Assembly (NCBI GenBank): GCA_000091205.1
Contig: AP006490.2
Reading direction: 5' to 3' (one strand)
Length of the DNA: 64,000 bases
Source of the DNA: Cyanidioschyzon merolae
Lineage: Eukaryota
The position numbers and the translations under genes are program-made. Below the pieces are notes generated by a model, which was given only the letters and a program-made list of their open reading frames with translations, searched no databases and was not told the origin of the DNA. Positions 1 through 53,499 of the stretch are shown here, in pieces; position 1 is the first letter of the stretch; the number at the start of each line of letters is the position of its first letter.

Positions 1-2712
1 GAGTAGGCGCTGAAGAACGTGTTCGACGGTTTCCTGGATGTATGCAAAAGATGCATGCACATATTTCCCCCAGAAAGGAAAGGTTTTCCAGCGCGTCGCC
101 GGGAAACCCGGACTCCCTATGCCCTGCAGTATACGCGTGATCTGCAGGGCGGTGCACGGAATGCGCGGTGGTGTGCATAGGTCCTGTTCCGCGTGCATTT
201 CCTGTCCACTTCGATATAGCGAATGCAGTAGGGCGCGAATGTCGGCCATCAAGAGTGCGTGGTCGTTGGCCAGACCGGTATGCGCAGACACTGGAGTACG
301 AGGCGATGAGATGGCAACGCAGGCAGGCGGCAGCTGCCCAGTGCGAAAGTAGTGATCCACCCATTCGCGAAAATGCGCTTCTATCTGGCTAGAACAAGCC
401 TCAGTTCGTCCAAGTTGCAGCACGGCGCGCGCTAGAAGTTCCATCTGTTCGAGACGTTCGAGGAACGCGCGCTGGTGCGCGAGGCGCTCCGCCACCAGCG
501 CATCCGTCCAGGCTCGGACTTGCGTGGCAAGCGGCGGCGGCGGCGGCTGACCAGAATGACATACCACGAGACATTCGCCAATTGTTTGCATCGTGATGAT
601 GCCTTGGTACTGTAGACGGCTGCAGCGGTCGAGCACCTCAAAGGGCGACATAGAGAGCGCCTGTGAGACAGCGTCGAGACGAACGTTACAGATGCTCGGG
701 TGGCGCAAGCGATGCGGAGCCTCGGCTGCGGAAAGGCGCACCAGCTCCTGGCAGAAGCTCCGAATATCCTCTGGCAAACAGGATACAGCTTGATGCAATG
801 TGATGCGTAGCGTTGTGGGCACGCGTTGGCGTGCTCTCCACGGCGCTGCGCCTACCGTGGAAAGCGCCTCCCCGGCAATGACAGTGAATCGAATGATGAG
901 TTGTTCCAGGATCGTTGCTGGAATGTCCAAGGTATTCTGTAGTGTAGCGAGGTCGAGGAGCGTAAAGCGCTCCGCAGCGCCTTCATTGCCAGGATGAGAG
1001 GATTCCGAGGTAACAACGACGCTCGCAACGAGACTGCGTACAAGTTTGCGAATCAGGGCCGGCTCTACCTGCTCGGCGAGAGCGAGCGCGCGCAAACGCT
1101 CTGTATCGGCTGCATCGTAGAACAGGTGACTGAAGGCGCTCGAGCGGTCTTTGCCAGCACAACTTGTCTGCTGCAAAAGGTCCTCGATGCTGTTCGGAAT
1201 GCTCCAGTGGACTGTGCAGCAAGCGGCGGGTGCGAGCGTTCGCAATGCGGACGAGCTGGTGGCAACAACCACGCGACAATGATGCTGGCGAAATGCTTCT
1301 TCAACTTTGCGGCGCTGTTCGGGGTTGAGTCCCGCGTGATAGCTGCGGGCGTCTATCAAGTGGTTTTGGAGCCAGGCTGCAAGTGCATCTGCATCGCGCT
1401 GTCGCGAAACGTAGATGAGCACAGGACCTGTCCACTGTTCGTCTTTGCTGAGCATTCGAACGAGCGTGCGGTATCGATCAACGGGTGTCGAAAAGCTAAA
1501 GTGCAGCTTCGAAGGCACCAAGTCGCTCTTTGGAGGTAGCGCCTCAACCAATGCTCCGGATACGACGGTGGCAAGGCAGGCTCGTACTGCTGGTGTTGGC
1601 GTTGCGGTCTGTGCGAGCAGGACGCATCCAGTATCGGCGGCGAGATGTTGTTTCAGCAGCGGTTGGATCTGCCAATAGGACGGCCTGAACATGGCGCTCC
1701 ACGGGAGCAGCAGGTGCGCTTCGTCAAGCACGACCGCGCTCGGATGCAGATGCTCAACAAACGACTGCACCTGGGGCTGGCAGAGGCGTTCCGGCGTGCA
1801 GAAGAGCACTTTGTACGCACCTATTTGCGTTGCCTCTAGAGACTGGAAGCCGCATGCGGTCTTGAAGCCATTGTTGGTGATCTCAGCGGCAGGCAACTGG
1901 GACGGCAAGTTTTCGAGTGCCTCGCGGATAAGTGATCGAAAGGGCTCGCACACCAGAACAGTTCCGCTGGTGAGCGCAGCGTAGAGCTCGTAAATCATGG
2001 ACCTACGGCTTCCAGGCCGTATACCCAAGAGTACGGACTCGCCGCGGAGCAGGTGTTGCAGAGCCTCGGACTGCTCGCTCCGCAGCTCGAGTCCAGGCAT
2101 GAGCTCTGGGACCGGACTCCGAAAATCGGAAGATTCAGAGACTTGATAGAGGGCTGGTGCGCGCTCGCACTGTCGCAGCATCGATATATCACATGAAGGC
2201 TGCGGGGCGGACTCGAGTAACCAGCTGGTTGCCGCTTGACACTGGAGTCGATGGACGTGTTCCCATAGAAAGAACGAGCAGCGAGGACGCTGCCCACAAA
2301 CGTAGTACGCTCGTTGGATCCGGCCGCCGTAGCCCCGCGAGACACGCCGTATGCACGGTTGGTTATGTTCGCGGCAAACCGGTGGATCCAATGGAACTTG
2401 TTGTCCATCGGGTTGCCAGGGACAATCGGCGACATCCTCCGCAGTGAGTGTGGCCCGTTCTGGATCCGCAAGCGAGTCATCAACGCATGTAGCTTGCCGA
2501 AGCGGGTGACTCCACCTGGAGCGGCCCGCCCACAAGCCAGTTCGATGCTCACCGCGACGACGTCGCTGTGCGAAACCGGCTCGAGCATCATTCGGTCGCG
2601 CCAAAGCTCGCTTTCTCTTCTTCTTCGTTTGGAATCGACCGAAAGTCGGGGGCGGTGCTGTCACTCGGACCGCTGGAGTGGTGACGACTTGAGGGCCCGG
2701 CGCCGGCTCCAT
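1..2712 (-). CDS. RecQ-family DNA helicase-like protein with N-terminal GRF-type zinc finger; partial (the gene continues past the 5' edge of the window); Walker A and arginine-finger motifs degenerate
   Basis: Manual translation of the minus strand from an ATG at 2710-2712 gives one open frame of more than 900 aa that leaves the window at position 1, which is why it is missing from the ORF track. A GRF zinc-finger-like block is present: 'PVCREHNQPCIRRVSRGYGGRIQRAYYVCGQRPRCSFFLWEHV'. RecQ helicase motifs are recognisable: motif 0/I region 'FRSPVPELMPGLELRSEQSEALQHLLRGESVLLGIRPGSRRSMIYEL' (RecQ consensus ...MPTGGGKSLCYQ), motif Ia 'TVLVCEPFRSLIRE', DEAH box 'AVVLDEAHLLLPWSAMFRPSYWQI', then 'LLAQTATPTP', 'YHAGL' and 'VVVATSSSALRTL...TVHWSIPNSIEDLLQQTSCAGKD'. 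The Walker A lysine is replaced by arginine and the glycines are lost (PGSRRS versus GGGKS). Motif VI reads SCAGKD versus GRAGRDG. Confidence 0.6.
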   Translation of the reverse strand, partial: MEPAPGPQVVTTPAVRVTAPPPTFGRFQTKKKRKRALARPNDARAGFAQRRRRGEHRTGLWAGRSRWSHPLRQATCVDDSLADPERATLTAEDVADCPWQPDGQQVPLDPPVCREHNQPCIRRVSRGYGGRIQRAYYVCGQRPRCSFFLWEHVHRLQCQAATSWLLESAPQPSCDISMLRQCERAPALYQVSESSDFRSPVPELMPGLELRSEQSEALQHLLRGESVLLGIRPGSRRSMIYELYAALTSGTVLVCEPFRSLIREALENLPSQLPAAEITNNGFKTACGFQSLEATQIGAYKVLFCTPERLCQPQVQSFVEHLHPSAVVLDEAHLLLPWSAMFRPSYWQIQPLLKQHLAADTGCVLLAQTATPTPAVRACLATVVSGALVEALPPKSDLVPSKLHFSFSTPVDRYRTLVRMLSKDEQWTGPVLIYVSRQRDADALAAWLQNHLIDARSYHAGLNPEQRRKVEEAFRQHHCRVVVATSSSALRTLAPAACCTVHWSIPNSIEDLLQQTSCAGKDRSSAFSHLFYDAADTERLRALALAEQVEPALIRKLVRSLVASVVVTSESSHPGNEGAAERFTLLDLATLQNTLDIPATILEQLIIRFTVIAGEALSTVGAAPWRARQRVPTTLRITLHQAVSCLPEDIRSFCQELVRLSAAEAPHRLRHPSICNVRLDAVSQALSMSPFEVLDRCSRLQYQGIITMQTIGECLVVCHSGQPPPPPLATQVRAWTDALVAERLAHQRAFLERLEQMELLARAVLQLGRTEACSSQIEAHFREWVDHYFRTGQLPPACVAISSPRTPVSAHTGLANDHALLMADIRALLHSLYRSGQEMHAEQDLCTPPRIPCTALQITRILQGIGSPGFPATRWKTFPFWGKYVHASFAYIQETVEHVLQRLL

Positions 2713-3710
2713 GCGCGATCAGGTGCGAGGAGCCAGGCTCTATTGCTGGAAGTGGCGCTCGTGCGTTGTCAGCACGCCCTCGATCTGGAAATGCGATTTC
2801 GAAAGTGTGTCCGAAGCCTTTTGCACTTGCCAAGCTCGTGGACGAACGAAGGTCAACAGGAGGAGAGAATCCCCAGTCTCTGTGTTCTGACGGATCAGAG
2901 CGGACACGTTCCACTATTCTCTTGACTCTGGATTGATACAGTGGCCTCGAGCAAATCCTGTTTTCAAGGCCACTCAGCGCCGCATGCGGCAGTCTGGCAC
3001 AGAGCAGCCAAACGGGCACGCGTCGCCGTCACCGCAGCAGTAACGGGAACTTTGGTCACGAGTTTCCCCCGGAGACTGGAAACAGCCTCGAACCCGTGTT
3101 TGTTTGGTGAGCGGTAAGCACCAGAGAAATAAGACGCGCGCAGCAGTCCGCCCCGTGTCCGTAGCTGCTCTGTTTGACGCGCGTCACAGGGACTCGGAGC
3201 GCTCTACCGACCACAGCTAGCGACCAACGAGCAGCGAGGCTCCTCGCTGGCCGCAGCGAACAGTTGCCTAAAGCGATGCGTTATCGGTGCGTGCAGGCGC
3301 CGAGATGAAGAGCGCTCCAGCCCCAACGAAGTCACGCGCGGAACCAACAGGCCGTGTAAAGAAGTCGCTCAACACACACACACACGTTCTTGGTCTACGA
3401 CGGCCAGTTTCTTGCCCTATTGATTCCTTAAGCGTTCTCCAGGCGTTTCCCGATAACCCAAGACTAGTGGCAAACTATACACTACTGGGCCCGAAACCGA
3501 GTTCGAGAGTCATGCAACCGTCTGACCGAATCGCGAGCTTCGGCAACGCCGGGTGTCGCGAAGACTTGTGGACAAAGCGGGGGATGTGCTGATTCCTAAT
3601 TGAGGGTGTTTTTGGCGCCAATTTTCATGAGGCGCCTTGGGAGCGCTCCCGAGATGTGCGCTCCTTCTTTCGGATTGCATCTTTCCTGCTCTACAAGACG
3701 TTTCCATGGA

Positions 3711-3958
3711 CCATGGATCCCAGACTGCTCACTTGGTAGCAGCATTTGGAGAAGCATCCTTCATTCTGCACGCTAGCTTCAAGTTCTATTCCTTGAAGTC
3801 CCAGTCGAAGATACCGGACGTTCCTCACGTTCAACAGTCGTGCGCAACGTGCCAGCCACGGGCGTTCGCCATAGCGCCTGTGGCGCCACTGCGTTCATAG
3901 GACGGAGACAGAACGGCATTGTAGTACCACTGGGGGCGTCGGCTCGAGGTTCGGATTC
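3711..3958 (+). repeat. Dispersed ~245-bp repeat family, copy 1 of 3 in window
   Basis: Shares conserved blocks with 19930-20165 and 29705-29945: 'ccatggatcccagaYtgc', 'ctWccttcaagYtcYatt', 'ggagacagaacggNtttgt' and 'ctgggggcgtYggctcgagg'. Overall identity between copies is roughly 65-75% by eye. Confidence 0.6.
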
Positions 3959-4865: not shown

Positions 4866-5950
4866 ATATACTCAGTAGTATCGAAGCATGGAACACCGCA
4901 ATGTTTGACCATTTGCCCAGAAAAATCGTTGTCTATGGAGGTGTGTATGGCGCTCCAGCCTTGATGCGTTGCAGACCCGTACCACACCAGTGCGTTTTCC
5001 TCCTCGCTACTGATTGTTTTCATCGAAAGTGTGCGGCTTTTCAGCGCAATGTCTACGGTGACTAGAAAGCGATTCCGTCGGATATTCGCGGCGTGCGAAG
5101 CCGCCGGACGCTGCGGCAGCAAGAGACATTTCCCGATCTCGGACGAGTCGCTCAAGTCTCTATTCGGAACTCGCCTGCAAGCGCTGGTGCTGGTGGAGTC
5201 ATGCCCTAGCAAGCCTCTGAGTTTCGATTGCCTCGCCATCTGGCGTGCAGTCAACTTGCCCTACACCGTCTCGTGTGTCCGGGTGTGTTTCACGCTCTGC
5301 GACTCTGCTAGGCTCACGGAGCGCTCTTGCTTGTGATGCGTTGATCTAGTGCGGGACGCATCGACGGGCGTCGTGCAGCATCGATTGCTGAACGCGTTGT
5401 ACGCTGGCGTCGAATGAGCGGGAGTGCACCCTCTGGGAGCTGCGGTGCGTCGATTGCCGCAGACTACCACGAGACGAGGCGACGCATCGGTCATGACCTG
5501 GTCCAGTGGCTCGAGCGAGCAGGCGAAAGCACGTGTCGTGCATCCGTACAACCGAGACGATTGGCAATGCCGTCGCTGCCTCATGTACGCCAGCCAGGGA
5601 TTGTCAATGGCAGCTATATCGACTCTCTTGTGATCTCTGCGTGAAAGACGCATACGAAGCGTTCCAGCGTGTTTGCTACGGTGCTTCGAGCATCAGGATA
5701 GGTTCTGAGGCTGTCACTACGTTTCATCGTATGCCTGCTTGCAACCATCATACCCGAATGCGGATCACACCGAGCGGTGGAAAATTCTGAACAGCATCCT
5801 TTGCTTTCCGTACAAGTGTTTGGCGGCGGCTTATTGATTTAAGGGTTCAGCGACGGTCATGATGTTCTTAAACCTGGGATACACGCGCAGCACCAAAGCT
5901 CTTTCAGCATCTACCATCATCGGTTGAAAATGAGTCCCGATGCTGGGCTC
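4866..5950 (+). repeat. R1: ~1.08-kb direct repeat, near-identical to 13998-15080
   Basis: The ORF track shows near-identical peptide sets in both copies, for example 4775..5065 versus 13937..14197, 4862..5254 versus 13958..14386 and 5506..5790 versus 14638..14922. The nucleotide alignment is collinear from 'atatactcagtagtatcgaagcatgg' to 'catcatcggttgaaaatga' with only scattered substitutions, about 98% identity. No gag/pol-like coding content was found. Confidence 0.85.
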
Positions 5951-7019
5951 AGGCCAAAGCATCACGAGCTTCTTGCACTTCATACAGATTGTGATTCCGT
6001 AGGTCTCCCACTGCACTCTAACCTGCTCTCGAGTTCCTCGCTGGAAACCAGAAGTCTCGAACGGGCTCAACCAATGCTCATTGCGAGGCTTTTCGGATGC
6101 ATCTTACATCTTCGCAGAGACCAACGCCTTAAGAGCCATCTCTTTTACGCGAAGAGCTGGCATGGACGCCGCCCCTATACTCCGTATCCGTGTTTCCTCT
6201 GGATTCAGACGCACTGGGTGAATCGTGAGGCAAAAGCTCGAATTTCCTATCTGACCATTTTCTTCAATGCATCAACCTTTCGTCAAAGGCCAGGTTCATG
6301 GACCGAATCGCGCCTTTCCCGCTAACTACCGCACACGAGAAGACAAACATCCGAGCAGCTCAGGCCTGGTGATATCTCCAAAGAACGATCTGTCGAAGAA
6401 CAATGTCCCGAATGCGAACGACTCGCCAATGGATCGGTGAGCGTCAGAATAGCGGTTGACAAGCATGAAGACAACATTCACTGGACGGAATGAGGGAAAC
6501 CGGCTGGCTCGAAGAGCACATCAGCGCCAGTCCCCGTCGCATATTCCTCGACTTCTGTTGCGTGATGGATATTGGCCTTGTCCTAAAGCGCTACGGAACA
6601 ATCCAGCAAGCAGGTGCAGCGAACTGCTCCGACGAAGGACTCGCATGTTCAGCGATTCTGTCCGTTTGGCGACTGGTAGACGACCCAACGAGAGAGCATT
6701 GCCACCAAGGCTGATGCTCCCGGAATGCTCGCGTGTCTCTTCTTGACGTACAGCGGGTTACCTGTCTTTGAGCACCCATCTACCGGTCTACAGTTTCCTA
6801 GAAATAATGCCTCATTGAATGGGATGAGCACCCATTCCTCTCGTGATGAACGTTCGTATTTCCATCCGAAATTGGCAGGGTGTCGTGCAACGCGCGGCGG
6901 TCGCTCATAAAAGTGTGCGTGTTCCTTCGTGTACCAATGTTGCTTCTTCACCGTTCGCGTCTGCAGCACGAAAACTGGACATACTGTCTCTTATTGGTCG
7001 CGTCTCCGATACAACTTGA

Positions 7020-7110
7020 ACGGTATGGATAGACGAGGAGAGAATCTTGCAAATCGAGGGTCATGCATACTGTCTGAGATGCACGATGTTCAGGATACGG
7101 GCCTCGAGGG
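7020..7110 (+). repeat. Short conserved motif pair shared with 16025-16110; possible distal part of a longer R unit
   Basis: 'atggatagacgaggagagaatctt' and 'gatgttcaggatacgggcc' match 'atggttagacgaggacagaatcgt' and 'tattgttcaggatacgaacc' at the same spacing. Both sit about 1 kb downstream of the respective R copy, with a divergent middle. Confidence 0.4.
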
Positions 7111-7505
7111 AGGTCGTTCGTCTTCCTGGTGCATGTGGAATGTCTGACTGACTGACTTGTACAAATAAGACCGCTTTCTTTGTAGACGAGCAATGACCAC
7201 AGCATGCCGCTCCTCGACCCGTCTCCAGTTCCCATTACACAATTCTGATTTTGAATACCTGCGAGGAAAACAAAGAAAAATTAAAAGTACTTATTGGTAA
7301 AGGTGCGCAACAACGCACTGCCCAAGAGATAACGTCGCGCAACGGCCAACGGACTGGACTTGGGTTCCTCAAACAACCTGACCTTGGATACGGGGAGCCG
7401 ACTCGGCGTTTCGCGAGCCTGACGCCCGGTCCCAGCCGTGCGGTAGCGAACGTGTGTTCCGGGGGAGGCCCCTGTTCGCCGTGGGTGTCGTCGTCGACGG
7501 ACACC

Positions 7506-9149
7506 ATGCCGTCGGTGGACACCAGCTCGGACGCTGACGGAAAGTCAACGCCTATTCAGGTCGCACGTGGCCTTTATAACTTTCTGCGAGTGGTTGGCGG
7601 GACGAATTACGAGCGGTCGGCGCTGGTAACAGATTTAAGTATTGGACTTGCGCTTCTGATCCAACGCAAAGAACGGGAACGAGAGCAAGAGCGAGAATCG
7701 TGGTTGGCAAGTCTCGAGAGAGAGCAAGTGCAGCTCGAGGCAGCGGAACTCAAGCGACTGCACCACTTTGCCCGACTAGCGCACGGTGCCTACAGCGCCA
7801 ACGACGAGGAGCTCTTCAAGCATACACCGGTGTACGCGAAGACGCTCTTGAAAGCGCGGTGGTCCAGCAGTCAAGAAGAGCCAGCCTATTACATTGCAAT
7901 CGACGAAGCCTTCCGTTCGATCGTGCTAGCTATCCGCGGAACCGATACGTTCTCTGATGTCTTCACGGATTTGAGTTTACATCCAACGCCGTTCCTGGGG
8001 GGCACTGCGCACGCTGGAATGACCCGTGCTGCTCTGCGACTCTACGATGAGGTCAGGGAAATGTTGCGGACAGCGCGCACAAACTATCCAGAGTACGACC
8101 TGGTTTTTACGGGGCATTCGCTAGGTGGAGGCGTTGCCTCTATCCTCACGATGAAACTCTTATGGGAAGACGATCCGCTGCTCCGCCTCTTCGAACAGCA
8201 CAACCGACCGAAGCTTCTTGCATATTCATACGGAACGCCTGCCTGTGTATCCCTCGAACTGGCGAGGAAAATTCAGGGGAGTCCTCCCGACCTGCGAGAC
8301 GCATTGACCACCGTGGTGCTCGGAGACGATCTCGTTCCACGGGCATCCGCCGCGAGTATGGATCGTATCGTGCGGGAGCTTGCTGCATTTAACTGGCGAG
8401 AACAGATCGCGAACGAGTTTAGCGAATATGTGAATACGAGCAGCCTTGCGCGCTGGTCACAGCATGTTATCCGTTGGTCTATCCCGCGGGACCAGGTGCA
8501 GCGCTTTGTCACTGAGATCGGGCAACGGCTGAGCAAAGCATCCTCGTCGATCAAAGGTGCGCGCCTCGGAAATACGTTTGGCCTTGTAGCAGCGGTAGCC
8601 GGCAGTGCCTCTGGCTGGATGAACTGGTATGGGAACCTTTTCCAGAAAGAGCAGCCGCAGGAGCGAGAAGCAGTGAATAGGGCTGAACCTCGACTTGCCG
8701 AACCGGTAGCGCTTCCGCAGTTCTACCCGCCAGGCGGTTGCATCTGGCACCTCCATGAGGTGTCACTGCGAGCGGGGGATCAGCGAGGGCTCCCTGAAGG
8801 CGCCGCCTCAGAACATGGAAGGGTGCGCCAACAGCTCGTCCAAGACATCTCGAATATTAGTCGTGAGGTATGGAACGAATTGCCGACGCTCAAGCAGCCC
8901 AACGAGTCTCCCGAGGCTCCCGGCAACGACTGGGATCGCTCCAATGCGCCCGAGGATGCTGCTGAGAGCATTGGTGCGGAGCCTCAGCGTCTACTGCTTC
9001 TCCGAACATCACCAGACGCTTTTCATGACATCGTGCTCAGCCGTCGCTGCTTCAATGATCATCTCATGCGCAATATTCGGCGCGCACTGGCAAGACTCTA
9101 TGAACAGCAGTACAGGCAGCCACGGCTCGGCGAGCATGGATCCAGTTAA
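7506..9149 (+). CDS. Class-3 (fungal-type) lipase / sn1-specific diacylglycerol lipase-like alpha/beta hydrolase
   Basis: ORF 7251..9149 has a TTG start; the first in-frame ATG is at 7506. The nucleophile elbow 'FTGHSLGGGVASIL' (GHSLGG) and an 'AIRGTDTFSDVFTDL' Lipase_3-like block are present. The region downstream of the catalytic Ser carries a conserved Asp. Confidence 0.7.
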   Translation: MPSVDTSSDADGKSTPIQVARGLYNFLRVVGGTNYERSALVTDLSIGLALLIQRKEREREQERESWLASLEREQVQLEAAELKRLHHFARLAHGAYSANDEELFKHTPVYAKTLLKARWSSSQEEPAYYIAIDEAFRSIVLAIRGTDTFSDVFTDLSLHPTPFLGGTAHAGMTRAALRLYDEVREMLRTARTNYPEYDLVFTGHSLGGGVASILTMKLLWEDDPLLRLFEQHNRPKLLAYSYGTPACVSLELARKIQGSPPDLRDALTTVVLGDDLVPRASAASMDRIVRELAAFNWREQIANEFSEYVNTSSLARWSQHVIRWSIPRDQVQRFVTEIGQRLSKASSSIKGARLGNTFGLVAAVAGSASGWMNWYGNLFQKEQPQEREAVNRAEPRLAEPVALPQFYPPGGCIWHLHEVSLRAGDQRGLPEGAASEHGRVRQQLVQDISNISREVWNELPTLKQPNESPEAPGNDWDRSNAPEDAAESIGAEPQRLLLLRTSPDAFHDIVLSRRCFNDHLMRNIRRALARLYEQQYRQPRLGEHGSS

Positions 9150-9737
9150 AACGAGGGTCTGTGCAGAGCCGCATCGCGACGCGGAAAAAACTGTATTCTA
9201 AGAGAATTGGCACCTGGAAAGGTGCGGTGTCAACGTATGAACCGGATGAGCAGAGTTCCCGTGGCGCCAAGGGTGCTCGGGTTCAAGTCAGGATCAGCGT
9301 GGATATCGTCTGTTTTCTGGATGGAAACTCTGGATTCGGTCTCGCAGAACATCGATGCATCCGCGGCGGAAGAGAGGCATCGTTGCTGGTCACCGGCAGC
9401 AGTCCTGGGTCCGCGGCAGTCTGGTGCGAGCCGTTTGATCCTGCAGCATAAAAATCGAAGCAGATATAGCTGCGCGCTGTGAAAGGTCTTTCCGCATAGG
9501 CAACGGGTTCGAGTCCACGCGAGGAAACGCAAGCGCTGACATCGTCCAGCGGCAACGCCCTCAAAGCACGTCTTGACAAAACGGCTCGCAAAATGGCCCA
9601 CTTTATTCGGCGGACGATCGCTGCGACACAGCTCCGCACGCTTCCGCATGCAACTCCAAAGGCGCTGCACAGTTCCAGCTCTTCAAACGCAAAGCCGCTG
9701 GATGCCTTTCATTTGACCCGCACGGGCGGTCGAACAA

Positions 9738-10709
9738 CTACGGACATGCCTCAGCGAAGAGCTGCATCTCAAACTGCATCGCCGGTGCATACGCTATTTC
9801 ATTCAACTGCTGAACCAAACGCTCTAACGTTTCAGAGGTCGCACTGCACCATTGCTCCGCGTACAAGTCAAGGAGAAGCTCAAAGCTTTCCGCCAATTCT
9901 TGAAATTTTGGGCTGGAATACGTGGCCACCCATGTTGCGCGGGCGCTCTTCCTAGGGTCATGGTCATCTGCGGCCTGTATATGGACCGACAGCTTTCTCC
10001 CAATGAACGCATAGAGCGACATGCACGGTACCATAGCGGCTACGAGCAGCAAGCGTGCTCGTCGCCAGGATGCTTCCACTGGAGCGATTCCGCCTTGCTC
10101 CTCATGGAATGCACCACTAGCGTGTATGAGCTCCTCTAAAAGTCCACGACTGTGACGCATGAGGAGTCGAAGATATCCCTGGCAGACTTTATGCAGTGCA
10201 GGGGCGCTGTTCTGCCTATTTGTCGACGAGACTGAGCGCGTCGCAGTCGCAGTCGGAGCCGCAGCCGCAGCCACCAGCTGCTGTGCCCCGTGTTTGGCGG
10301 CGACCTGTTCTTGGGCAGAAACGCTTCCACGCTCGGCGGCTATGGCGTGGCTTAACTCGGCGAGCACCTGGTGCTCCCAGCCTGTTTCGGCGGTGAAGCA
10401 GAGCAGACCCAGGCACCGCCAGTAGCCTGCTAGGAACTCAGTGTCAACGGAGAGGAAGCTAGCCAAGTTCGATTCCGATAAAGTACCTTGGGCCAATTCG
10501 CGAAGCCACGACGTCTGGAGTGCTTGCTCGATTACCGCAGAGTTTGACTGCCACAAAAGCTCGCTAGCGCAGGTCATAAAAAGCCTCTGGAATAGCAGGC
10601 AGCGAGGCGCGTTTCTTCCGGTTCGAGACGCTCCGACAAGGCCTTTCGAGAGCAAGAGAGGTTTAGACGGTTTTTGCTCGTGCGACGTGACGTTAGATAC
10701 ACGTTGCAT
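9738..10709 (-). CDS. TenA/THI-4 family (thiaminase II / heme-oxygenase-like fold) protein with ~60-aa N-terminal extension
   Basis: ORF 9738..10724 has a GTG start; the first ATG is at 10709. 'LAQGTLSESNLASFLSVDTEFLAGYWRCLG' matches the TenA 'L..G.L....F..Y..QD..FL..Y.R' block. The C-terminal 'VPCMSLYAFIGRKL' matches the TenA 'PC..Y..IG' motif. Confidence 0.5.
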   Translation of the reverse strand: MQRVSNVTSHEQKPSKPLLLSKGLVGASRTGRNAPRCLLFQRLFMTCASELLWQSNSAVIEQALQTSWLRELAQGTLSESNLASFLSVDTEFLAGYWRCLGLLCFTAETGWEHQVLAELSHAIAAERGSVSAQEQVAAKHGAQQLVAAAAAPTATATRSVSSTNRQNSAPALHKVCQGYLRLLMRHSRGLLEELIHASGAFHEEQGGIAPVEASWRRARLLLVAAMVPCMSLYAFIGRKLSVHIQAADDHDPRKSARATWVATYSSPKFQELAESFELLLDLYAEQWCSATSETLERLVQQLNEIAYAPAMQFEMQLFAEACP

Positions 10710-11185
10710 GCAAGCTGTGGTCACCGTTCACGCCGACTGAATACCGCAACCCCATGCTTCAGTTGCGCTTCCCCGGTTCAAGTGTTAAGGTCGATAGGCC
10801 GTGGAGTGGTTGCGTTTTTATTGGCTCGGAATCTCCGCTGCAAGCAAGCTATTCAACTATTTGGCGCTGCGTCTGGTGTTTTTCTTGAAATGCCCAGTCT
10901 CGTACTCTACCCGTATGAGAATAAAACGGAACTGGTCCAGTAAGCAGAGTTGGGCATACGCTCGAGATTTTGAATGTGTGCCCGGCATGTTCAAAACAAG
11001 TCCATGCGGGATATTCTCTGACTGCATTCGTTACCCCGCTCGTCTCACAAGCTGTGCATACGTCGGTCTCTCATGTGCTTCCAGCTCCGTCGTCGTTATT
11101 GGAGTAAATCTGATGGCAGCGTTTTAGTTCGGACGTCGCTGCATCCGACTGTAGTCTATGCATTACACGCGCCAGCGGGCGTTGC

Positions 11186-11545
11186 GATCCACGCCTCATT
11201 TGCCATGCTCAGCTTCTTTATAGACAGTCCCGATGCAGTCGCCAAAGCGGTGACACTTGATTATGGTTAGCTGCGCTCACATGCTCACCATACAAGCCGT
11301 CTCTCAGCGAGCGGCCTCTGTGGCGCCTGAACGCTTACTCCATCACGCGGTAGATGTCGGTTTCTGGGTCAGAAGGCCCGCCTCGATGCTCGAATCTGTT
11401 TTTCGCTGCCAATGGCTTGCCCTCCGTCACGGGCTTCTTCGTTGCGATCCACTCGGCGAGTACTCTGTCCGTTGCACGCTCGTACACACACTGTCCTACT
11501 CGATAGAGGATTTCCAGGACATGGTGCTGTCGATGATGAAATAAG
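11186..11545 (+). repeat. Y-family repeat, 5'-truncated or diverged copy (Y3)
   Basis: Shares the left-end block 'tcatttgcca..cagcttc.tta.ag...gcggtgacacttg' with 20716-20790 and 58690-58750. It also shares the internal block encoding '...YSVRCTLVHTLSYSIEDFQDMVLSMMK', compare 'DYAVRCTWGHTLIRSTEDLWNAMLSIMK' in Y1. Confidence 0.55.
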
Positions 11546-12498
11546 TATCGAGTGGAAAATCCAGACTGGAGAACAAGTAGAGAAATCCTGATGCGTGTGC
11601 GCTCCCTTCGTGCAACGCAATGGTGCACGCTGCACTAGAAGCAATTGCTTCGACGAATTGAACCAAAGTCCAAGGCCTTTTCCCATGCAAGCTGAAGAGA
11701 CGGGAGCTTCTGCTTGCGTGTCGCGTGCCAGGCACCATGTTGCTGTCGAATGCCGTTTCCTAGAAAGTTCCAGTGAGAGAGAGGGGCGTGTTGGTATTTC
11801 CCACGGAATCGATTCCTCTAGTTGATAGCTTCAGCATACTTGTGGGATGCGCTTATGGACAAGTCGTCAAGGAATTACATCAAGTTTTGTTGCTCGTCGT
11901 ACCAGCAGCACGAATCGCCGCGCCGTCGACTTGCCCCGACACAGCAACATCAAAAACTTGAAGAATATGCGATTTGAGCGTCCCATACCCAAGGAAACGA
12001 GAAACGTGGAGGCTTGTACATATTCGTTGGACCACGATATCGACTACAATATGAATACTGGTTCGAGGGCATCCCCAATTATCTTGATTTCGGTGGCGTC
12101 TTCAATGCCATCAGCAGCGCCTCTAAGCAGCCACACCGAGAACACGACCGAGACTCCCGGAACGACGTATGAATCCGTAAGCCCATGGTGCTGCACTTTG
12201 ATGTCGAGCATCTATATTTTGAACAAGATCGAAAAAGTTTGAAATGATGGAACAGAACGAACAAGACAGTACCCTAAATTTACCGTACACGGATGTGCAA
12301 CACTCCTGCACCATGCGTGTGACGCCACGCAACGCCACGCGTGGCTACGCTACCCGCGACGCGCCAGCGAGGTTGCACGTGCTGTTGCAGCGGGCGCTTG
12401 CGTTGAGCGCGTTTCCCTCTTTTTCTTCAGCCGTTACTCTGCAAGTTTCTGTTCCGTGAACGTTTCCTTTTGAATCATTGGGCACTCTTGCGTTCGCC

Positions 12499-13998
12499 AT
12501 GGACGGATTGTGGGCACGGAAGGACGGCGGAAACGGTCTTGTGGACGAGCAGGGACTCCGTGCACCACTCTCGGGTGGACTCGGTTGGGAGTCCAGGATG
12601 CGTTCCCGCTGGAATGACTGGCTGCGCAAGCTCGACGTTTACCCCAAGACTGTCGAGGACGTGCGCTTACGTTCTGTGACAGGAGGCATCATCGCTTTAT
12701 TTTCGTACATTTGCATCGGTATTCTGGTCGTTTCAGAGTTTCTGCGGTGGTTGCAGCCCCAGCTCCACTCTAACGTGCTCGTGGACGCGCGCTCGATTCT
12801 CGATACCGAGCCAATCACGGTAGATCTGGGCATAGATCTCCTCGCTGTCGGTTGTGACGAGTTTAGCCTTGACGCGCTCACTGCGAACGGCGCGCAGCTC
12901 CCCAACAGTGTTGTGGAGCTGCGTAAACGCCCATTGGATGCGAGCGGTCAACCTGTGATATTTCCCCGAGGTGCATTCGGACGCAGTCGTCTGCGGAACG
13001 AGCGAGGTGGCGTAGCGCCAGCACCTCAGGCGCTAACGGAAGACCCGCCAAACACACAGCAACTCGAAGGGCGAGTATCCCAGGAAGTACGCGCGCAACT
13101 GAAACAGTATCGCGAAGAGGCGATAGCTTTCCGTGATCGCCTTGCAGCGTTGAACAAGACCGGTGTTGCGTATTGTGGCTCCTGTTATGGTGCTGTGCCT
13201 CAAACAGATCAAGTCGGGGAGGCGAATCAAATAACGTCCGGAGTATGCTGCAACACCTGTGATGAAATTCGCGTCCTGTACGAGGAACGGAACTGGGCAT
13301 TCGATCAAGTGCTTCGAACGGCGGAGCAGTGTGCTGAAAAACGCTACTTGACGCTGCTTCACGAAGCCGGTCGTGTTCAGTCTGGTGGCTGTCGAGTGTC
13401 CGCACGTTTACAGCTACCACGGGTGGCGGGCAACTTTCACTTTGCTCCGGGCAAGGGCCATACGCACCGTATGGGCCATCATGTTCATTCGGTAGATGAT
13501 CAGTTGCTCCACCGCACCTATAATTTCTCGCACCGTATTCGGCATTTGCGGTTTGGTCCGCTGTTCCCGCACCAGCAGAATCCACTTGACGGCGCGATGC
13601 GGATTCTGGAGCAACCGCCGCCGGGGTCACCTTTTGGCAACATGGTGCTGTATTATTGCAAGCTTATACCGACAACATACCGTCGAGACCGCCAGCGCGG
13701 CGACGCACTTCGATCGATGGAGTACGCAGCCGCAGACCTGACACAATCATCGGAACAGGATCGGGTGGGAATCACGCATAGTACGGGTGCATTGCCAGGA
13801 ATATTCTTTTTTTACGAACCTCAGCCTTTGCAAATCGCGTACTTTGAAGGTCGGATGTACGGTTTGCTGCATTTCATCGTCCAGCTATGTGCCATTGTTG
13901 GAGGCGTTTTTACCGTAAGCAGTATGATCGATCGTTTTGTATTTGGGGCGGGAACCTTCATTCGGGCGCAGAAGCGCCGGCTCGGCAAGCTTGGGTAA
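12499..13998 (+). CDS. ERGIC3 / Erv46-like ER-Golgi vesicle transporter (ERGIC_N plus COPII-coated ERV domains)
   Basis: 'LRKLDVYPKTVEDVRLRSVTGGIIALFSYICIGILVVSEF' is the ERGIC_N and TM1 region. 'CGSCYGAVPQ...CCNTCDEIRVLYEERNWAF' is the Erv46 cysteine-loop signature. The C-terminal TM and tail 'IDRFVFGAGTFIRAQKRRLGKLG*' resemble the human ERGIC3 tail 'IDSLIYHSARAIQKKIDLGKTT'. ORF start 12478 is TTG; the first ATG is 12499. The stop codon at 13996-13998 overlaps the first base of repeat R2. Confidence 0.7.
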   Translation: MDGLWARKDGGNGLVDEQGLRAPLSGGLGWESRMRSRWNDWLRKLDVYPKTVEDVRLRSVTGGIIALFSYICIGILVVSEFLRWLQPQLHSNVLVDARSILDTEPITVDLGIDLLAVGCDEFSLDALTANGAQLPNSVVELRKRPLDASGQPVIFPRGAFGRSRLRNERGGVAPAPQALTEDPPNTQQLEGRVSQEVRAQLKQYREEAIAFRDRLAALNKTGVAYCGSCYGAVPQTDQVGEANQITSGVCCNTCDEIRVLYEERNWAFDQVLRTAEQCAEKRYLTLLHEAGRVQSGGCRVSARLQLPRVAGNFHFAPGKGHTHRMGHHVHSVDDQLLHRTYNFSHRIRHLRFGPLFPHQQNPLDGAMRILEQPPPGSPFGNMVLYYCKLIPTTYRRDRQRGDALRSMEYAAADLTQSSEQDRVGITHSTGALPGIFFFYEPQPLQIAYFEGRMYGLLHFIVQLCAIVGGVFTVSSMIDRFVFGAGTFIRAQKRRLGKLG

Positions 13999-15080
13999 TA
14001 TACTCAGTAGTATCGAAGCATGGAACACCGCAATGTTTGACCATTTGCCCAGAAAAATCGTTGTCTATGGAGGTGTGTATGGCGCTCCAGCCTTGATGCG
14101 TTGCAGACCCGTACCACACCAGTGCGTTTTCCTCCTCGCTACTGATTGTTTTCATCGAAAGTGTGCGGCTTTTCAGCGCAATGTCTACGGTGACTAGAAA
14201 GCGATTCCGTCGGATATTCGCGGCGTGCAAAGCCGCCGGACGCTGCGGCAGCAAGAGACATTTCCCGATCTCGGACGAGTCGCTCAAGTCTCTATTCGGA
14301 ACTCGCCTGCAAGCGCTGGTGCTGGTGGAATTATGCCCTAGCAAGCCTCTGACTTTCGCTTGCCTCGCCATCTGGCGTGCAGTCAACTTGCCCTACACCG
14401 TCTCTTGTGTCCGGGTGTGTTTCACGCTCTGCGACTCTGCTAGGCTCACGGAGCGCTCTTGCTTGTGATGCGTTGATCTAGTGCGGGACGCATCGACGGG
14501 CGTCGTGCAGCATCGATTGCTGAACGCGTTGTACGCTGACGTCGAATGAGCGGGAGTGCACCCTCTGGGAGCTGCGGTGCGTCGATTGCCGCAGACTACC
14601 ACGAGACGAGGCGACGCATCGGTCATGACCTGGTCCAGTGGCTCGAGCGAGCAGGCGAAAGCACGTGTCGTGCATCCGTACAACCGAGACGATTGGCAAT
14701 GCCGTCGCTGCCTCATGTACGCCAGCCAGGGATTGTCAATGGCAGCTATATCGACTGTCTTGTGATCTCTGCGTGAAAGACGCATACGAAGCGTTCCAGC
14801 GTGTTTGCTACGGTGCTTCGAGCATCAGGATAGGTTCTGAGGCTGTCACTACATTTCATCGTATGCCTGCTTGCAACCATCATACCCGAATGCGGATCAC
14901 ACCGAGCGGTGGAAAATTCTGAACAGCATCCTTTGCTTTCCGTACAAGTGTTTGGCGGCGGCTTATTGATTTAAGGGTTCAGCGACGGTCATGATGTTCT
15001 TAAACCTGGGATACACGCGCACCACCAAAGCTCTTTCAGCATCTACCATCATCGGTTGAAAATGAATCCGGATGTTCGAT
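13998..15080 (+). repeat. R2: ~1.08-kb direct repeat, near-identical to 4866-5950
   Basis: See R1. Identity decays after about 15070, where 'aatgaatccggatgttcgattt' stands against 'aatgagtcccgatgctgggctc' in R1. Confidence 0.85.
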
Positions 15081-16024
15081 TTGGTACTTTTTCGCACCTG
15101 TGCGGTCGATGCTCCTCGCGACGAGGCAACGCGGCGACGCTTTGCGGCATTCGGGGAAGCGTGTCTGCAATTCTGTGAACCTAGGATCCGGCCGTGTCAC
15201 ATCTTCTGTCATGAGTATCGGATGTGATGTCCCGTGGAGGTATCATCGCAGAATTTCAGACGACTACGGACAACTGGCACCTTTTGCGCCTACAACTCCT
15301 GCGAATAATTGCTTGACGAGGTGCGTCGAAACGAGGTGCGCTAGGCAAGCCCTGAACGAGTAGCAAGCCACGTGATCTCCAGTGGCGTCCAGAATGTTTC
15401 CCGTTCGCGAACCAGAACCGCATTTCTATGGATCGATCAGCGTCGAATGGCGATCGATAACAAAGAGAACGCCTTTCACGGCGCCGAACCTGGAGCATAG
15501 GTTGGTACGAAATGCAGCGCAACGCTGATTTCACGTACGAACTCGCTGAGCGTTTTTGCGTGATGCACAGTGACCTTTTCAAAGGGCAGGAGAGAAGCGT
15601 ATGTGAGATTGAAGGCATAAAAAGTGCTTTGACGAGGCAGGAGCTGTTGAATGCTGGCGCCTATTCGGCGATTTGTCGCCCATAAAACCATGCCATCGAC
15701 GCTGGTGCTGTTGTTGCCGGTACGCCCCCTTGTCTCTGTTTTATGATGTGCGGTTCGCCGCTCTTCGCATGCCCATATACATGTCTACCAGCTCCCGCGA
15801 ATAAAACCCCATCGAGTGAGACGAGCACCCGTACCTTCGATAACCATAAGCATTTGTTATCCGTTCCGCAAGCGACAATGTGCAGGTCAACGCGGAACGG
15901 TGCCCTACCGAACCGCATCTCTGCTGTTGTCCGTCCGTGTCTCTTCATAGGTGTTGATTTCAATTGTATTGAAACTTCATTTGCTGGGGCTCCTCTCGTC
16001 GTTTTGCTTTCAGAATACATGGAT

Positions 16025-16110
16025 GCGCATGGTTAGACGAGGACAGAATCGTATAGACCTAGTTTGTACATTTTCGTTTCGGGTGCATATTGTTCAGGAT
16101 ACGAACCACG
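16025..16110 (+). repeat. Short conserved motif pair shared with 7020-7110
   Basis: See 7020-7110. Confidence 0.4.
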
Positions 16111-16289
16111 AGAAGCGTGGTTCATCCACCTTCTCACCATACAATGACTGCGTTGTGAGTATGCGCTGGTAGAGCCCGCGTTGCAGCTCGGGACCCCTGT
16201 GCTGAAGCGCAATTCCCTTTTCAGCAGGCGCTGCATACGGTCAGTATAAAAAGTCCCATGACTGTGGAGGATATGTTAATACACCCACT

Positions 16290-17410
16290 AGCAGACGACT
16301 CCCAGTCTTTTTTCACCAGCCGTCTGGTATCGGTTTCAGTTTCTCCCTGCACACTTCGACCCTGCGATGGTGCTTCACAAAAATCTCTCGCCTCAGCTCC
16401 GCATACCGTCTGATACGAATGGCGGCGTTGAGGTCTCGGTGCTCGAACCTCTTGCATGCGTCGACGCTGGTTGAACTCACTATTGCAAGGATTCCTGGAA
16501 TTCGCGCCCGATGTACCACTACAGCGTCGTCACCCTCCCGTCGGGAAAGCACCTTTTCTCTCTTATCTCCCGTCTTTCTCCTCTTCATCATCACTTGCTC
16601 CTCTCCGCTCGGTTACCGGTGAGAGCAGATTTCTTTTCGTTCTTTTTCGGCAGCCGGCGGCACTTGCCCCGCCCGGATCCTCGACTTGCATTTCCTTGCC
16701 AGTTCTTTCGATATTTTATTTCTTGAAATAAACGCGTTTCTTTACGCCCTTACGAGAAGACCTTCCCAGGGAGAGAGGGATCTGTGGATCAAAGGCGAAA
16801 TATGCCCCTGGTTTGTCTCCGTGGTCTGAGCGCTTCAACGATTCGCACAGCGGGGCGTTCATTACGTTTCGGGATGCAAAACGCTCCATCGATGGGGTCG
16901 GACAACGCAACGTACCCAGGAATGAAAAGCAGCTCGACGTCTATAGAATCGGGGAAACAGCGAACGCAAGGGTAATGGTGAGATACCACGTTGTCCACTG
17001 GAGGGACGTCATCAGACGCCAGAGCAAAGTCCTCAATGGTTCGGCAATGTGGTTGTTGCTGTTGGACGAACCCTCTCTACGAGCGACACTGAGGCGGCCA
17101 AATGAACCCACTACTGCCAGAACAGATGCTAAGGTCGTTGTTCTCTTCGAGCTCGATTGTATATACAACGAGCTCTCCGCTCCGCCAATGCCCATATACG
17201 TTCCCAACGGTTCGTCCGAAGCAACTCTCATCGGCTGGAAAAGCAAACCGACGTTCCTGCGCCTCATAGAGATTGTGACGTCCCTTGAATCCTTGTCGTT
17301 GCGATTTCGGTGGAAGATGGCCGTGCGTGAACAAGCACTGTTTTGTGCCAGTATCCTAGTGTTTAGCGGACCACCCGAGCAAGCAGTCGAATTCCAGAGA
17401 CCCGTGTGAT
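16290..17410 (+). repeat. A/B repeat family, copy A: two small ORFs (93 aa on the minus strand, ~195 aa on the plus strand) with a conserved spacer; unknown element or paralogous gene pair
   Basis: ORF 16813..17409 (TTG start) is about 45% identical at protein level to ORF 54620..55183 (minus strand). Compare 'MSPWSERFNDSHSGAFITFRDAKRSIDGV' with 'MAPYAGRFSDSARKAIITFHDTKCSLDGV', 'VVVLFELDCIYNE' with 'ILVLFDFDRIYNG', and 'SLSLRFRWKMAVRE' with 'ALSLQFRWKVAVNE'. Upstream spacer 16620-16740 matches 53815-53920 ('ttcgttctttttcggcagccggcg..ac.tgccc'). The minus-strand ORF 16313..16594 has a degenerate, stop-containing homolog around 53560-53760. Confidence 0.45.
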
Positions 17411-18682
17411 GGCTGTCATCGTCGCTTTTGCTTTCCGAAAAGTGATCAATGGGTCGTTTTCTAGCATTTGCCGCAAGCACTCTTTGAGAATACCGGTTTC
17501 TGGTGCGGATCGCATATATTTGTTTCTTTCAGTGTTCCTCAACCATCAGACGACTATGGTGTGACTAACCTGAAGGAGGAATGCAGCCATCCTTGCACTG
17601 TTCAGTAAAGATTCTATCCTACGGGCAACACGTCCACGCTCTGTACGGTACATTCCACTGGCATTTCGACCTCCTACTATACACCACTGCTGGTGTGGTA
17701 CAAAACTGAGTTCAAAGACCATAAGCGCCACAGTACAATGAGGCAACGCGAGGGATCGGGAACTGCGTTCCCGGCGCGTGGATCATTATTCTAAGTTCGC
17801 TTACGTTTCGAATGGCTGACGAGTATGGACGCTCTCGTAAACACTTTGGTCATTTCGGATACTCCGCAAGCAATCAAGGGAGAGCTCTATCGATGTTGTC
17901 CAACTTTTACGGTAACGAGTAACACCCCGATCAGGATGACGCTTCACTTGCTAGCGGTTGCAAATGGGTCCACGACGTCGCTACCAGAGCGGACCTCAAT
18001 GATTTTCTGGCTCGCCGGCGCGCCAGAAACGTTGGAACAACGTATGCTCAGTAATGCACCGCCGCGCATGCGTATTCTTGCTGGTAGGTGCTTCAGGCAT
18101 GGCGGTTCCGATCATGTTCGCCCGAGCTGTGACGCAAGCGCGTGCTCCTGATGCGGTAAATCTTCGGTCCATGAATCTATCCGGGATCAACAGATGTGTC
18201 GTGAAACGCTCTTCGGTAGCGAGGCCGGACCCAGCGAAGCATGCCGAGCGCCCAGGACGCTCTACTTGTCCAGACCAGTGCGGCCGCTGTTCCGCGGTTT
18301 GGATGTGAGAGCCCGGCCGGATCTTCCCCGCACAGCAGACAATCCATTCAGATCCACAGACGGTTTCGTGTAAGCACCGTGCGACGCGTGGAGCAGGCGA
18401 AAGCTCCCATCGACACCGATTCGTGGGTTGATCGTTGCGACGACGGCTCGTTTTTCAGAACGTCTGCTTGAGCGATCAGGCGAGAAGTGTCAGGGTCGGT
18501 GAGACGTGGTCTCGATCACGCTGAGGTCCCATACGCAGCGCATAGCATCTATTCCTGAATCCATCATCACATTACGGGGCATCGTCGCAGAGCTATAGGC
18601 ACCACGGTTCCGAGTTCAACACACATCTCTAAGCGTGCATAACAGGATCAATCCCAACAATACAGCGCACCTCTGCCAACTT

Positions 18683-19777: not shown

Positions 19778-19929
19778 CTGGGGAGTTCCTCGCGTCTGTC
19801 CGCGGCGAAAAATACCAGGCGTGCACGCCGTAAGCTAAGCGCTAGCAGGTACGCTTGCAAGCGGCGGATGCGCGTGTCGCGGCGTGGCTGCCGGTGATTT
19901 TCTTTCGATGGAAAAATATCTCTATGAAC

Positions 19930-20165
19930 CATGGATCCCAGATTGCGTGATGGATATTTGCATACGGGAATGTTTCGTTTATGCTGCTATCTACCTTCAA
20001 GTTCCATTACCTATACTTCCTCTCGGATGTGCTGGTCGTTTCGTACGTTCTATCGTGCGCCCAGTACCTGCCTTGAGCGCTCACAATAACGCCTATAGCG
20101 CAAGTGCGGATGCTGCTCAGAGACAGAACGGGTTTGTCATGCCCGTTTGGGCGTCGGATGCAGGT
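19930..20165 (+). repeat. Dispersed ~245-bp repeat family, copy 2
   Basis: See 3711-3958. Confidence 0.6.
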
Positions 20166-20715
20166 CAGGATATGGACCTGTTTCCATGACAAGTGCAGCT
20201 GCCTTCTCGTGGCATTATCGCAGGAACGGAGAATCTCCCGTACACATCCCGATGCGAATGATTTCCATCGTGCACTGCCGCTGCAGATTAAACGTGTCAA
20301 CGAAAGCGCGAACATTTGCTTCAACTCCTCAAACGTTGCACCAGTGAAAGACCGAGCCTGCTTATCACACATGCAATGGAAACCGGGCTGGCTCTGTCAA
20401 ACAGATATGAGCTTCGCCCGCTGTACCTCTTTGCGAACAAAATGGAAGGGGCGCCCACCGAACGAACTCGGGCATACATACTCAAGTTTGGGTCTCTTCC
20501 CCATGCCATCAACACCAGCAAATTCGGGCGTTTTCTCCGACTGCTCTCTTTGCCCCTCTTATCTCCGTCTCTGAAGATGCACATCCCTACGGTGCCTCTG
20601 GCTCTGTTGTCAGCAGTCGAAGGATGTTGATGGCAGCGTTCAGGTGCCAATTTCGCCGCTCGCGGCTGGTGTCGACGCGTCTGATCCGCCGATGGAAGTT
20701 GCGAACTACACGTCA

Positions 20716-53480: not shown

Positions 53481-53499
53481 TTGTCCTCGATGTATCCCC

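Follow-up and report, generated by a model that had tools for sequence, protein, structure and literature searches.

The 64,000-nucleotide stretch of DNA analyzed here (referred to below as the window) belongs to chromosome 8 of Cyanidioschyzon merolae 10D and carries two near-identical direct repeats, R1 and R2, on either side of a block of three genes encoding a class-3 lipase, a TenA/THI-4-like protein, and ERGIC3. The repeated sequence, R, is not free-standing: it makes up the initial ~1.08 kb of an interspersed repeat of ~2.46 kb, which we have named U, and a third copy of R was detected to the left of the window in environmental relatives of the strain. We consider it likely that interlocus gene conversion (concerted evolution) among three neighboring U relics having the same orientation has homogenized R. 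These relics carry a decayed gene which, judging from sequence similarity, is of the Fanzor1/TnpB-like type.

In a BLASTN self-comparison of the window, R1 (4866-5942) and R2 (13998-15074) were found to align over 1077 bp with 12 mismatches and no gaps, i.e., with 98.9% identity. The initial annotation had rightly described them as near-identical direct repeats, but placed their ends at 5950 and 15080, which is ~6-8 bp too far. R starts with ATATAC and ends with GAAAATGA, and showed neither TG..CA termini nor a target-site duplication (TSD). Its left border is sharp: the first base of R2 is the last base of the TAA stop codon of ERGIC3, the junction reading ...GGGTA up to the border and ATATACTCAG from the border onward. 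Since R2 starts on the last base of the stop codon, the 3' untranslated region (UTR) of ERGIC3 must fall in repeat sequence; both of these points had been made previously, and the junction sequence bears them out. A second short motif shared by the two loci was previously thought to indicate a repeated unit of about 2.2 kb with a diverged middle. This motif does exist (7080-7127 versus 16084-16131, 71% identity), but it is merely the best-kept patch of an alignment of 739 columns (6406-7127 versus 15405-16131, 57.5% identity, E = 2e-26). The unit is indeed longer than R, but its size is ~2.46 kb, and the whole of its 3' 1.4 kb has diverged, not the middle only. Independent environmental contigs from different samples, which are ~99% identical to the window, cross all four junctions of the pair: that between the helicase side and R1 (L029), that between R1 and the lipase side (L002, L027, and L026), and those of ERGIC3 with R2 and of R2 with the downstream sequence (L008, L009, L022, L024, and L025). 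The R1/R2 pair is therefore not an assembly artefact, contrary to what had been put forward as a possible refutation.

The full extent of U emerges from the comparison between U1, the relic to which R1 belongs, and a fourth copy, U4. U1 (4866-7327; nhmmer profile match 4867-7327) is a full-length relic with its Fanzor-like pseudo-open reading frame (pseudo-ORF) on the minus strand, and its end is A-rich near 7270-7290. U4 is inverted with respect to U1: part of it lies in the window (62656-64000, plus strand), and the remainder, including the R-equivalent, lies beyond it, in DNA past the right end of the window (L034) which was reached via a carrier protein encoded at 60482-61558 and identical to BAM79837.1. 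U1 (4867-7324) and U4 (L034 6444-8900) align end to end over 2527 columns with 58.6% identity (E = 1.9e-127), and the alignment begins exactly at the left border of R. Within the window, U1 5985-7324 is 58.8% identical to U4 64000-62660; beyond it, R2 matches the R-equivalent of U4 (L034 6444-7532) at 59.4% identity (E = 7e-67), and the continuation of U4 (L034 6444-7559), which starts at the same terminus, is ~59% identical to R1 and R2. Since this end-to-end alignment pairs units of 2458 bp (U1) and 2457 bp (U4), R replaces sequence and adds none. U2 (13998-16156, minus strand; nhmmer match 13999-16156), the relic to which R2 belongs, shows internal deletions and a shortened far end; its segment 15186-15405 matches the sequence directly following the R part of U3, the relic to which the third copy of R belongs (z = 15.9). 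In all, the nhmmer profile of U detected four copies in about 95 kb of C. merolae DNA. Since four unrelated left flanks share one terminus (TATACT.A.TA.T.TCGAA), the left border of R is the end of the element. The right border varies depending on the copy (1077 versus 914), and past it the U copies stay collinear and homologous, with copy-specific internal deletions just beyond the border.

The third ~99% copy, R3, was found in environmental contigs in the gap between the genes encoding a 248-aa protein and an M17 peptidase, ~8.9 kb to the left of the window. It was placed there because contig L029 links R (positions 1-914) successively to the third right flank Y (on the side of the 3' end of the M17 gene), the M17, proteasome subunit, and helicase genes and the first 187 bp of R1, while contig L026 overlaps window positions 1-1148. 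The third left flank, X', on the side of the 248-aa gene, was also seen in environmental contigs. R1, R2, and R3 all have the same orientation and occupy three consecutive intergenic gaps, separated by 13.7 and 9.1 kb. When the metagenome contigs were scanned for exact 26-mers, four stretches were obtained, all of which are in the three known R contexts; no R match was obtained in a scan of viral contigs, and no further ~99% copy in the ~95 kb of C. merolae DNA. Instead of the two copies originally counted, there are therefore at least three near-identical ones, and the right end of the window holds a further one with ~59% identity. As to whether R is a high-copy dispersed element, which had been considered liable to make the flanking arrangement coincidental, R does belong to a dispersed family, but three adjacent intergenic gaps are the only places where its ~99% version was found. 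Homology arms of 1 kb or primers chosen in 4866-5942 or 13998-15074 would match these three loci. In the helicase-side copy on L029, a 38-nt patch (about 125-167 in the contig, R positions 22-60) shows ~20 substitutions in comparison with all the other R copies, in register and in this one contig; the idea that it is an unconverted remnant was rejected, as U4 is similar to R at these positions and unlike the patch.

The sliding identity profile of the four-way alignment shows an abrupt step at the inner border of R. U1 and U2 are 97-100% identical over positions 1-1077 and ~43-61% identical thereafter, and both are 97-99% identical to U3 up to ~914 and ~32-61% identical beyond that point. The profile of U4 against the three R parts is flat at 56-64%, and past R it lies at ~32-64%, the same spread as the other pairs; overall, U4 is 60.0-60.5% identical to R1, R2, and R3 over 880 aligned positions and 51-58% identical to the remainders of the copies past R. 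A plain recent (segmental) duplication does not account for ~99% versus ~55% identity within one collinear 2.46-kb unit; of the two explanations originally offered for the high identity, recent duplication or gene conversion, it is the latter that fits. It does so because the copies are old and collinear, the step is sharp, R replaces sequence, the distant member is uniformly diverged, and the copies have a common end border and a variable inner border. Hypermutation resembling repeat-induced point mutation was rejected as the cause of the diverged half (the transition/transversion ratio is ~1, with no bias). A separate conjecture, that the left flank of R1 might be a relic of the 3' end of ERGIC3, was not significant (z = -0.8).

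The following sequence of events probably led to this pattern. R1 and R2 are the same ~1.08-kb end of separate, old, dead U copies, and R3 is that of U3, and non-allelic gene conversion would have repeatedly copied the R segment between the three neighbors. The conversion domain would begin at the element's own terminus, where homology begins, and end where indels and divergence stop usable homology, that is, at 1077 bp in U1 and U2 and at 914 bp in U3. Conversion would have been acting continuously since the time when the copies were alike, while divergence and indels progressively fenced off the remaining unit, and the far halves have drifted to ~50-60% identity, as has every part of the distant, inverted U4. 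The bracketing of the lipase, TenA, and ERGIC3 genes would then be a by-product of the insertion sites of two relics and not a cassette structure. Seen in this light, the structure is a known process (concerted evolution) at work on relics of a known class (the Fanzor1-bearing transposons of C. merolae), and a striking arrangement is explained as the by-product of ordinary genome processes. As in other cases of concerted evolution among linked dispersed repeats, the nearby copies are near-identical over a bounded tract, identity drops abruptly within a collinear unit, and the distant member is not homogenized. The present case differs in that a non-coding, decayed relic is involved instead of a selected gene, the three copies are 9-14 kb apart, the tract is anchored at a terminus, and the process is deduced from the pattern. 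For an organism which is used for engineering based on homologous recombination, the sharp 99%-to-55% step offers a natural read-out of ectopic gene conversion.

Several points weigh against this interpretation. The mechanism of conversion and its persistence over time are inferred from the pattern of identity, no conversion event having been directly observed. The interpretation does not account for why conversion was confined to the R half, the other ~1.4 kb having escaped it entirely, and it is somewhat unusual for non-coding relic DNA to be homogenized over the long term for no selective reason. Environmental relatives are the only source of R3, whose presence in 10D is deduced from them, and the searches for further copies covered metagenome contigs, viral contigs, and ~95 kb of C. 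merolae DNA, so that further ~99% copies may exist elsewhere in 10D. Lastly, the data on shared variants are weak, as they come from short-read metagenome contigs whose reads may be a mixture of several strains and of three ~99% copies: both R copies of 10D share the states at R positions 129 and 759, unlike most environmental copies, although the contigs may mix copies, and seven of the 12 differences between R1 and R2 segregate at the ERGIC3-linked copy in environmental contigs, again with possible mixing. The differences at 1025 and 1073, near the inner border, track the flank.

The gene carried by U was identified by its remains. In R1, a pseudo-ORF on the minus strand (5063-6085) corresponds to the C-terminal nuclease half of a putative Fanzor1/TnpB-like protein (tblastn matches to residues 513-684 of P0272 and 2-342 of P0260, two members of the family, the former being an intact one of 699 aa). 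Its counterpart in R2 (14171-14728, minus strand) and a further N-terminal fragment in U2 (15084-15419, minus strand) were detected by tblastn and translation. A 130-aa ORF on the minus strand of R gave 24 matches in a phmmer search of 1.84 billion representative proteins, the best distant one having an E-value of 1.7e-13; one of the matches (P0262) shares 93% identity with the CMe-1 protein published for C. merolae, with which the R pseudo-ORF itself shares 36% identity over 103 aa (E = 4e-15). The matching proteins have the motifs GxDPG, PVDEFRTSYTH, and NRDxNAAxNIRRC in common, which we take to resemble the split RuvC motifs of TnpB and Fanzor. The only match with a curated TnpB model was a sub-threshold one, that of P0260 to PF07282 (E = 0.011), and sequence searches of the PDB and NCBIfam with the family gave no matches. 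The gene in R is a dead pseudogene, since it contains six stops in 408 codons and has lost the Asp of RuvC-I and the Glu of RuvC-II: GxDPG has become RVYPR and PVDEF has become PVDAS, and only NRD has been kept. The pseudo-ORF of U4 is as decayed as that of R, and R is therefore not visibly a younger subfamily. The variable sites of R are distributed 11/9/8 over the codon phases, with a synonymous-to-nonsynonymous ratio of ~1:3 in all six frames; since R shows no coding constraint, selection at the protein level does not explain its identity. The possibility that R is a living gene was likewise rejected, as its ORFs have no Pfam matches, tblastx of R against the other repeats favored no frame, and there is no codon-phase bias; exact-protein look-ups of the R ORF and of a 101-aa ORF near R1 gave nothing. 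The carrier protein of 10D likewise gave no exact match, and the lipase gave only a contig of 4 kb. No structured guide RNA was detected: there was no Rfam match, and the terminal 235 nt of R fold no better than shuffled sequences (z = +0.78; two independent sequences). Nor does R seem to be an RNA gene, as Rfam gave no match at E <= 1, no tRNA was detected, and the folding is not unusual.

As regards the type of element, the lack of gag, pol, TG..CA termini, and TSDs recorded in the initial annotation was confirmed, but R is nonetheless transposon-derived, since its minus strand carries a decayed Fanzor1/TnpB-like ORF. Inspection by eye of the flanks and termini of three or four U copies showed no terminal inverted repeats (TIRs) and no recognizable TSDs, and Helitron-type ends fitted none of them. 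A long terminal repeat (LTR) retrotransposon or a pair of solo LTRs was rejected for lack of TG..CA and TSD and because the interior consists of three host genes in ancestral synteny. U was not classified as a retroposon, as it has an A-rich end but no TSD and no pattern of 5' truncation.

Bao and Jurka (2013; PMC3627910) described the Fanzor1 protein CMe-1 in ~150 copies of a 3169-bp C. merolae element, CMe-1A, which has no TIRs and undetermined TSDs, and their list also includes a Fanzor1 from white spot syndrome virus. The CMe-1A class probably explains an earlier report of an interspersed element of 3.2 kb, present in this genome in 253 copies, whose truncated ORF is WSV486-like (Nozaki et al., 2007; PMC1955436). 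U is similar to CMe-1A in that both are interspersed C. merolae repeats without TIRs or detectable TSDs, with highly diverged copies and a truncated Fanzor1-like ORF, but CMe-1A is ~3.2 kb long as compared with ~2.46 kb, and its 3169-bp consensus gave no match to U1, U2, or R at E <= 1e-4 and a marginal one to U4 (56% over 430 nt, E = 1e-5). This comparison rules out, at the nucleotide level, that U is CMe-1A. U appears to be a separate, more divergent family of Fanzor1 relics, although it was compared with the CMe-1A consensus only and may be listed in Repbase under another name. The U family, the three-copy cluster, and the clean identity step may be new findings at a modest level.

Among the other possible origins of R, parts of the relics could have been overwritten in one or two recent events of non-homologous copying (for instance, by template switching or by microhomology-mediated break-induced replication) without any ongoing concerted evolution. 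The sharp borders and the R1-R2 divergence of 1.1%, which is close to that observed between 10D and environmental strains in unique DNA (0.6-1%), would fit a fairly recent event of this kind. We find it unlikely, however, as the copying must have started exactly at the element terminus in three copies and landed each time in register with the old unit, and as every environmental strain sampled already has R at the same sites. A recent overwrite by homologous recombination is also unlikely, since it would have had to take place between partners with only ~58% identity.

It is distinctly improbable that R might be a young, non-autonomous, one-end derivative of U (~1.08 kb) which has recently transposed to three nearby sites, since R fills the homologous slot of a full-length unit. 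All three R copies lie exactly in the R-equivalent slot, with the old remainder following in register, whereas an inserted sequence would have added length, which is not the case in U1 (2458 bp) as compared with U4 (2457 bp). No R copy without a U remainder was found in the metagenome contigs or in the ~95 kb of C. merolae DNA, and neither TSDs nor TIRs accompany the copies. A derivative of this kind would nevertheless account for ~99% identity, for a sharp left terminus common to three unrelated flanks, and for one copy being shorter than the other two at the other end (914 versus 1077 bp), and there exists a precedent in C. merolae, TE-N2_CMe, which is a one-end derivative consisting of the terminal 635 bp of CMe-1A (Bao and Jurka, 2013; PMC3627910).

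R2 supplies the whole 3' UTR of ERGIC3, and several contigs, which may be transcripts, run from ~100-220 bp upstream of the ERGIC3 ATG through R2 to 15390-15823; R might accordingly have acquired a host function (as a terminator or 3' UTR, a promoter, a non-coding RNA, or an origin) and have been kept alike by selection together with conversion. This is very unlikely in view of the differing gene contexts of the three copies, which lie 3' of ERGIC3, between the divergent helicase and lipase genes, and 0.9 kb 3' of the 248-aa gene, respectively. In addition, variation is spread evenly within R, the equivalent part of U4 is fully diverged, and the Rfam, tRNA, and folding analyses described above (z = +0.78 for the terminal 235 nt) were all negative.

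Even more doubtful are two further readings, namely that the homogenization may be the footprint of nuclease-stimulated recombination or, less exotically, that the R copies may really recombine in nature, excising and re-inserting the block. In the first of these cases, an active Fanzor member located elsewhere may cut at or near the transposon end, the break being repaired from neighboring copies. The TnpB and IscB nucleases (and presumably also Fanzor) are involved in homing: the breaks which they induce are repaired with another copy of the transposon as the template. The resemblance is that the part kept identical by recombination here is the transposon end beside a TnpB-family gene, and the converted tract would be expected always to start at the element terminus beside the Fanzor gene. 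The differences are that all the U copies seen are pseudogenes which have lost catalytic residues, that no guide-RNA-like structure was detected, and that the three flanks differ. Gene conversion among the three relics remains our preferred explanation. As for an assembly artefact by which the region was duplicated or collapsed, its probability is negligible: contigs of independent origin, obtained from different samples, span each of the four junctions, the finished sequence of the 10D genome runs from telomere to telomere (PMC1955436), 12 sites distinguish R1 from R2, and nothing was found in support of an artefact, the frequent breaks of short-read contigs at the R borders showing only that R is repeated.

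The three bracketed genes are ancestral host DNA and not cargo, because they occur in the same order in two relatives. In Cyanidiococcus yangmingshanensis (L011) and a third related species (L032), the genes are arranged in the order PNPase, 321aa, 222aa, 248aa, M17 peptidase, proteasome subunit, DEAD helicase, lipase, TenA, ERGIC3, eIF3g, 222aa, and TCR, and the window shows the same gene order from the helicase onward. The DEAD/DEAH helicase gene (1-2712, minus strand; first Met at 2712), which runs off the left end of the window and was identified by tblastx to L011, is the ancestral left neighbor of the block; helicase genes with Pfam DEAD and Helicase_C domains were also called in L026 and L029. 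The identities originally assigned to the three genes were confirmed by Pfam, weakly in the case of TenA. The lipase gene (7506-9149, plus strand) matches PF01764 (Lipase_3; E = 1.3e-22), and a 547-aa gene was called in L002 and other contigs. The TenA/THI-4-like gene (9738-10577, minus strand) has a weak match to PF03070 (E = 5.5e-5) and a syntenic orthologue in L011, and the ERGIC3 gene (12499-13998, plus strand) matches PF07970 and PF13850 (COPIIcoated_ERV and ERGIC_N) and is 100% identical to BAM79826.1 of strain 10D. The ancestral right neighbor of the block, eIF3g (18683-19777, minus strand), was identified by its Pfam eIF3g and RRM_1 domains and by synteny with L011. The helicase-lipase gap measures 4.5 kb in the window versus 1.3 kb in Cyanidiococcus, and the ERGIC3-eIF3g gap 4.7 kb versus 1.3 kb; the equivalent gaps in L011 and L032 are ~1.3-2.7 kb long. 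No similarity to U, R, or family A, another interspersed repeat of the window described below, was detected in the DNA of these relatives (L011 and L032). L032 has short interspersed repeats of its own (14447-18764; ~110-220 bp, 64-80% identity) in the intergenic DNA beside the M17 gene, which are unrelated to U, A, or R.

Many contigs from the Joint Genome Institute (JGI) and Logan (L008, L009, L010, L016, and L022-L025; window ~12273-15823) start 100-220 bp upstream of the ERGIC3 ATG and continue through R2. They look like transcript assemblies, in which case R2 would be transcribed together with ERGIC3. Two of them switch inside R to unrelated sequence, that of the ribosomal protein S3 gene (L023) and that of ROK/RsmB genes (L016).

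Non-allelic homologous recombination between R1 and R2, which would delete, circularize, or move the block, is plausible mechanistically and is hinted at by alternative contig joins. Strain 10D efficiently excises DNA between engineered direct repeats (pop-out, used for marker recycling; PMC13353863). Both situations involve a segment between two direct repeats in an organism in which homologous recombination is efficient, and a deletion and a circle are to be expected, but the engineered repeats are terminator copies and the loss of the segment is selected, whereas here the segment consists of three conserved host genes. Joins differing from those of 10D were found in environmental contigs: ERGIC3-R-Y, on the M17 side (L001 and L014/L026, the latter being Ga0080006_1195404), X'-R-lipase side (L012/L026), and X'-R-eIF3g side (L015, Ga0078972_1003379). 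A 46-kb environmental contig shows the order X'-R-lipase..ERGIC3-R-Y-M17-proteasome-helicase-R and, by length arithmetic, ends ~100 bp into R. This order may reflect the excision of the block and its re-insertion at R3, or it may be another valid path through the assembly graph of a three-copy repeat. The X'-R-eIF3g join agrees with neither order, so that one or both of the contigs starting with X' (L012/L026 and L015) must be chimeric or come from a different arrangement. The joins not found in 10D, which are either chimeras or real rearrangements, give a lead and not a finding; three ~99% direct repeats around essential-looking genes nevertheless constitute a concrete site at which to seek structural variation.

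The intergenic DNA of the "unusually simple" genome of C. merolae contains several old families of interspersed repeats. Besides U, the window contains five matches to the CMe-1A consensus with 71-81% identity (3693-3949, 19906-20164, 29685-30322, 52589-54148 on the minus strand, and 55294-55646). The first three are copies of the 5' end of CMe-1A (the part corresponding to TE-N2_CMe; 71-80%), the fourth is a 1.56-kb piece of its ORF region (81%), and the fifth is a C-terminal piece, as are 16291-16509 and 16567-16735, both on the minus strand. Beside these fragments lies a pair of inverted 1-kb repeats with 70% identity (16707-17726 versus 54272-55290). Family A is a ~1.4-kb interspersed repeat with at least seven copies (10905-12296, 20421-21804, 23212-24112 on the minus strand, 48298-49681 on the minus strand, 55711-56439 on the minus strand, 58432-59771, and L012 8355-9294), which are ~58-66% identical and showed no ORF and no Pfam, Fanzor, or CMe-1A match. 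To this family belong the arms of an inverted, near-identical pair (20902-21803 and 23212-24112; ~98% over ~900 bp), which end at its terminus (...CCATTTCAATCTGAC) and flank the 222-aa gene (22269-22955). Diverged homology beyond this pair was looked for and not shown, and the pair may be due to gene conversion or to a recent partial duplication. The 222-aa gene itself contains an internal repeat of ~150 bp (22371-22517 versus 22731-22880, 67% identity), as does its orthologue in Cyanidiococcus (L011 15892-16030 versus 16249-16390). Three of the family A copies are located directly upstream of gene starts, namely those of ERGIC3, the 222-aa gene, and a 2398-aa gene.

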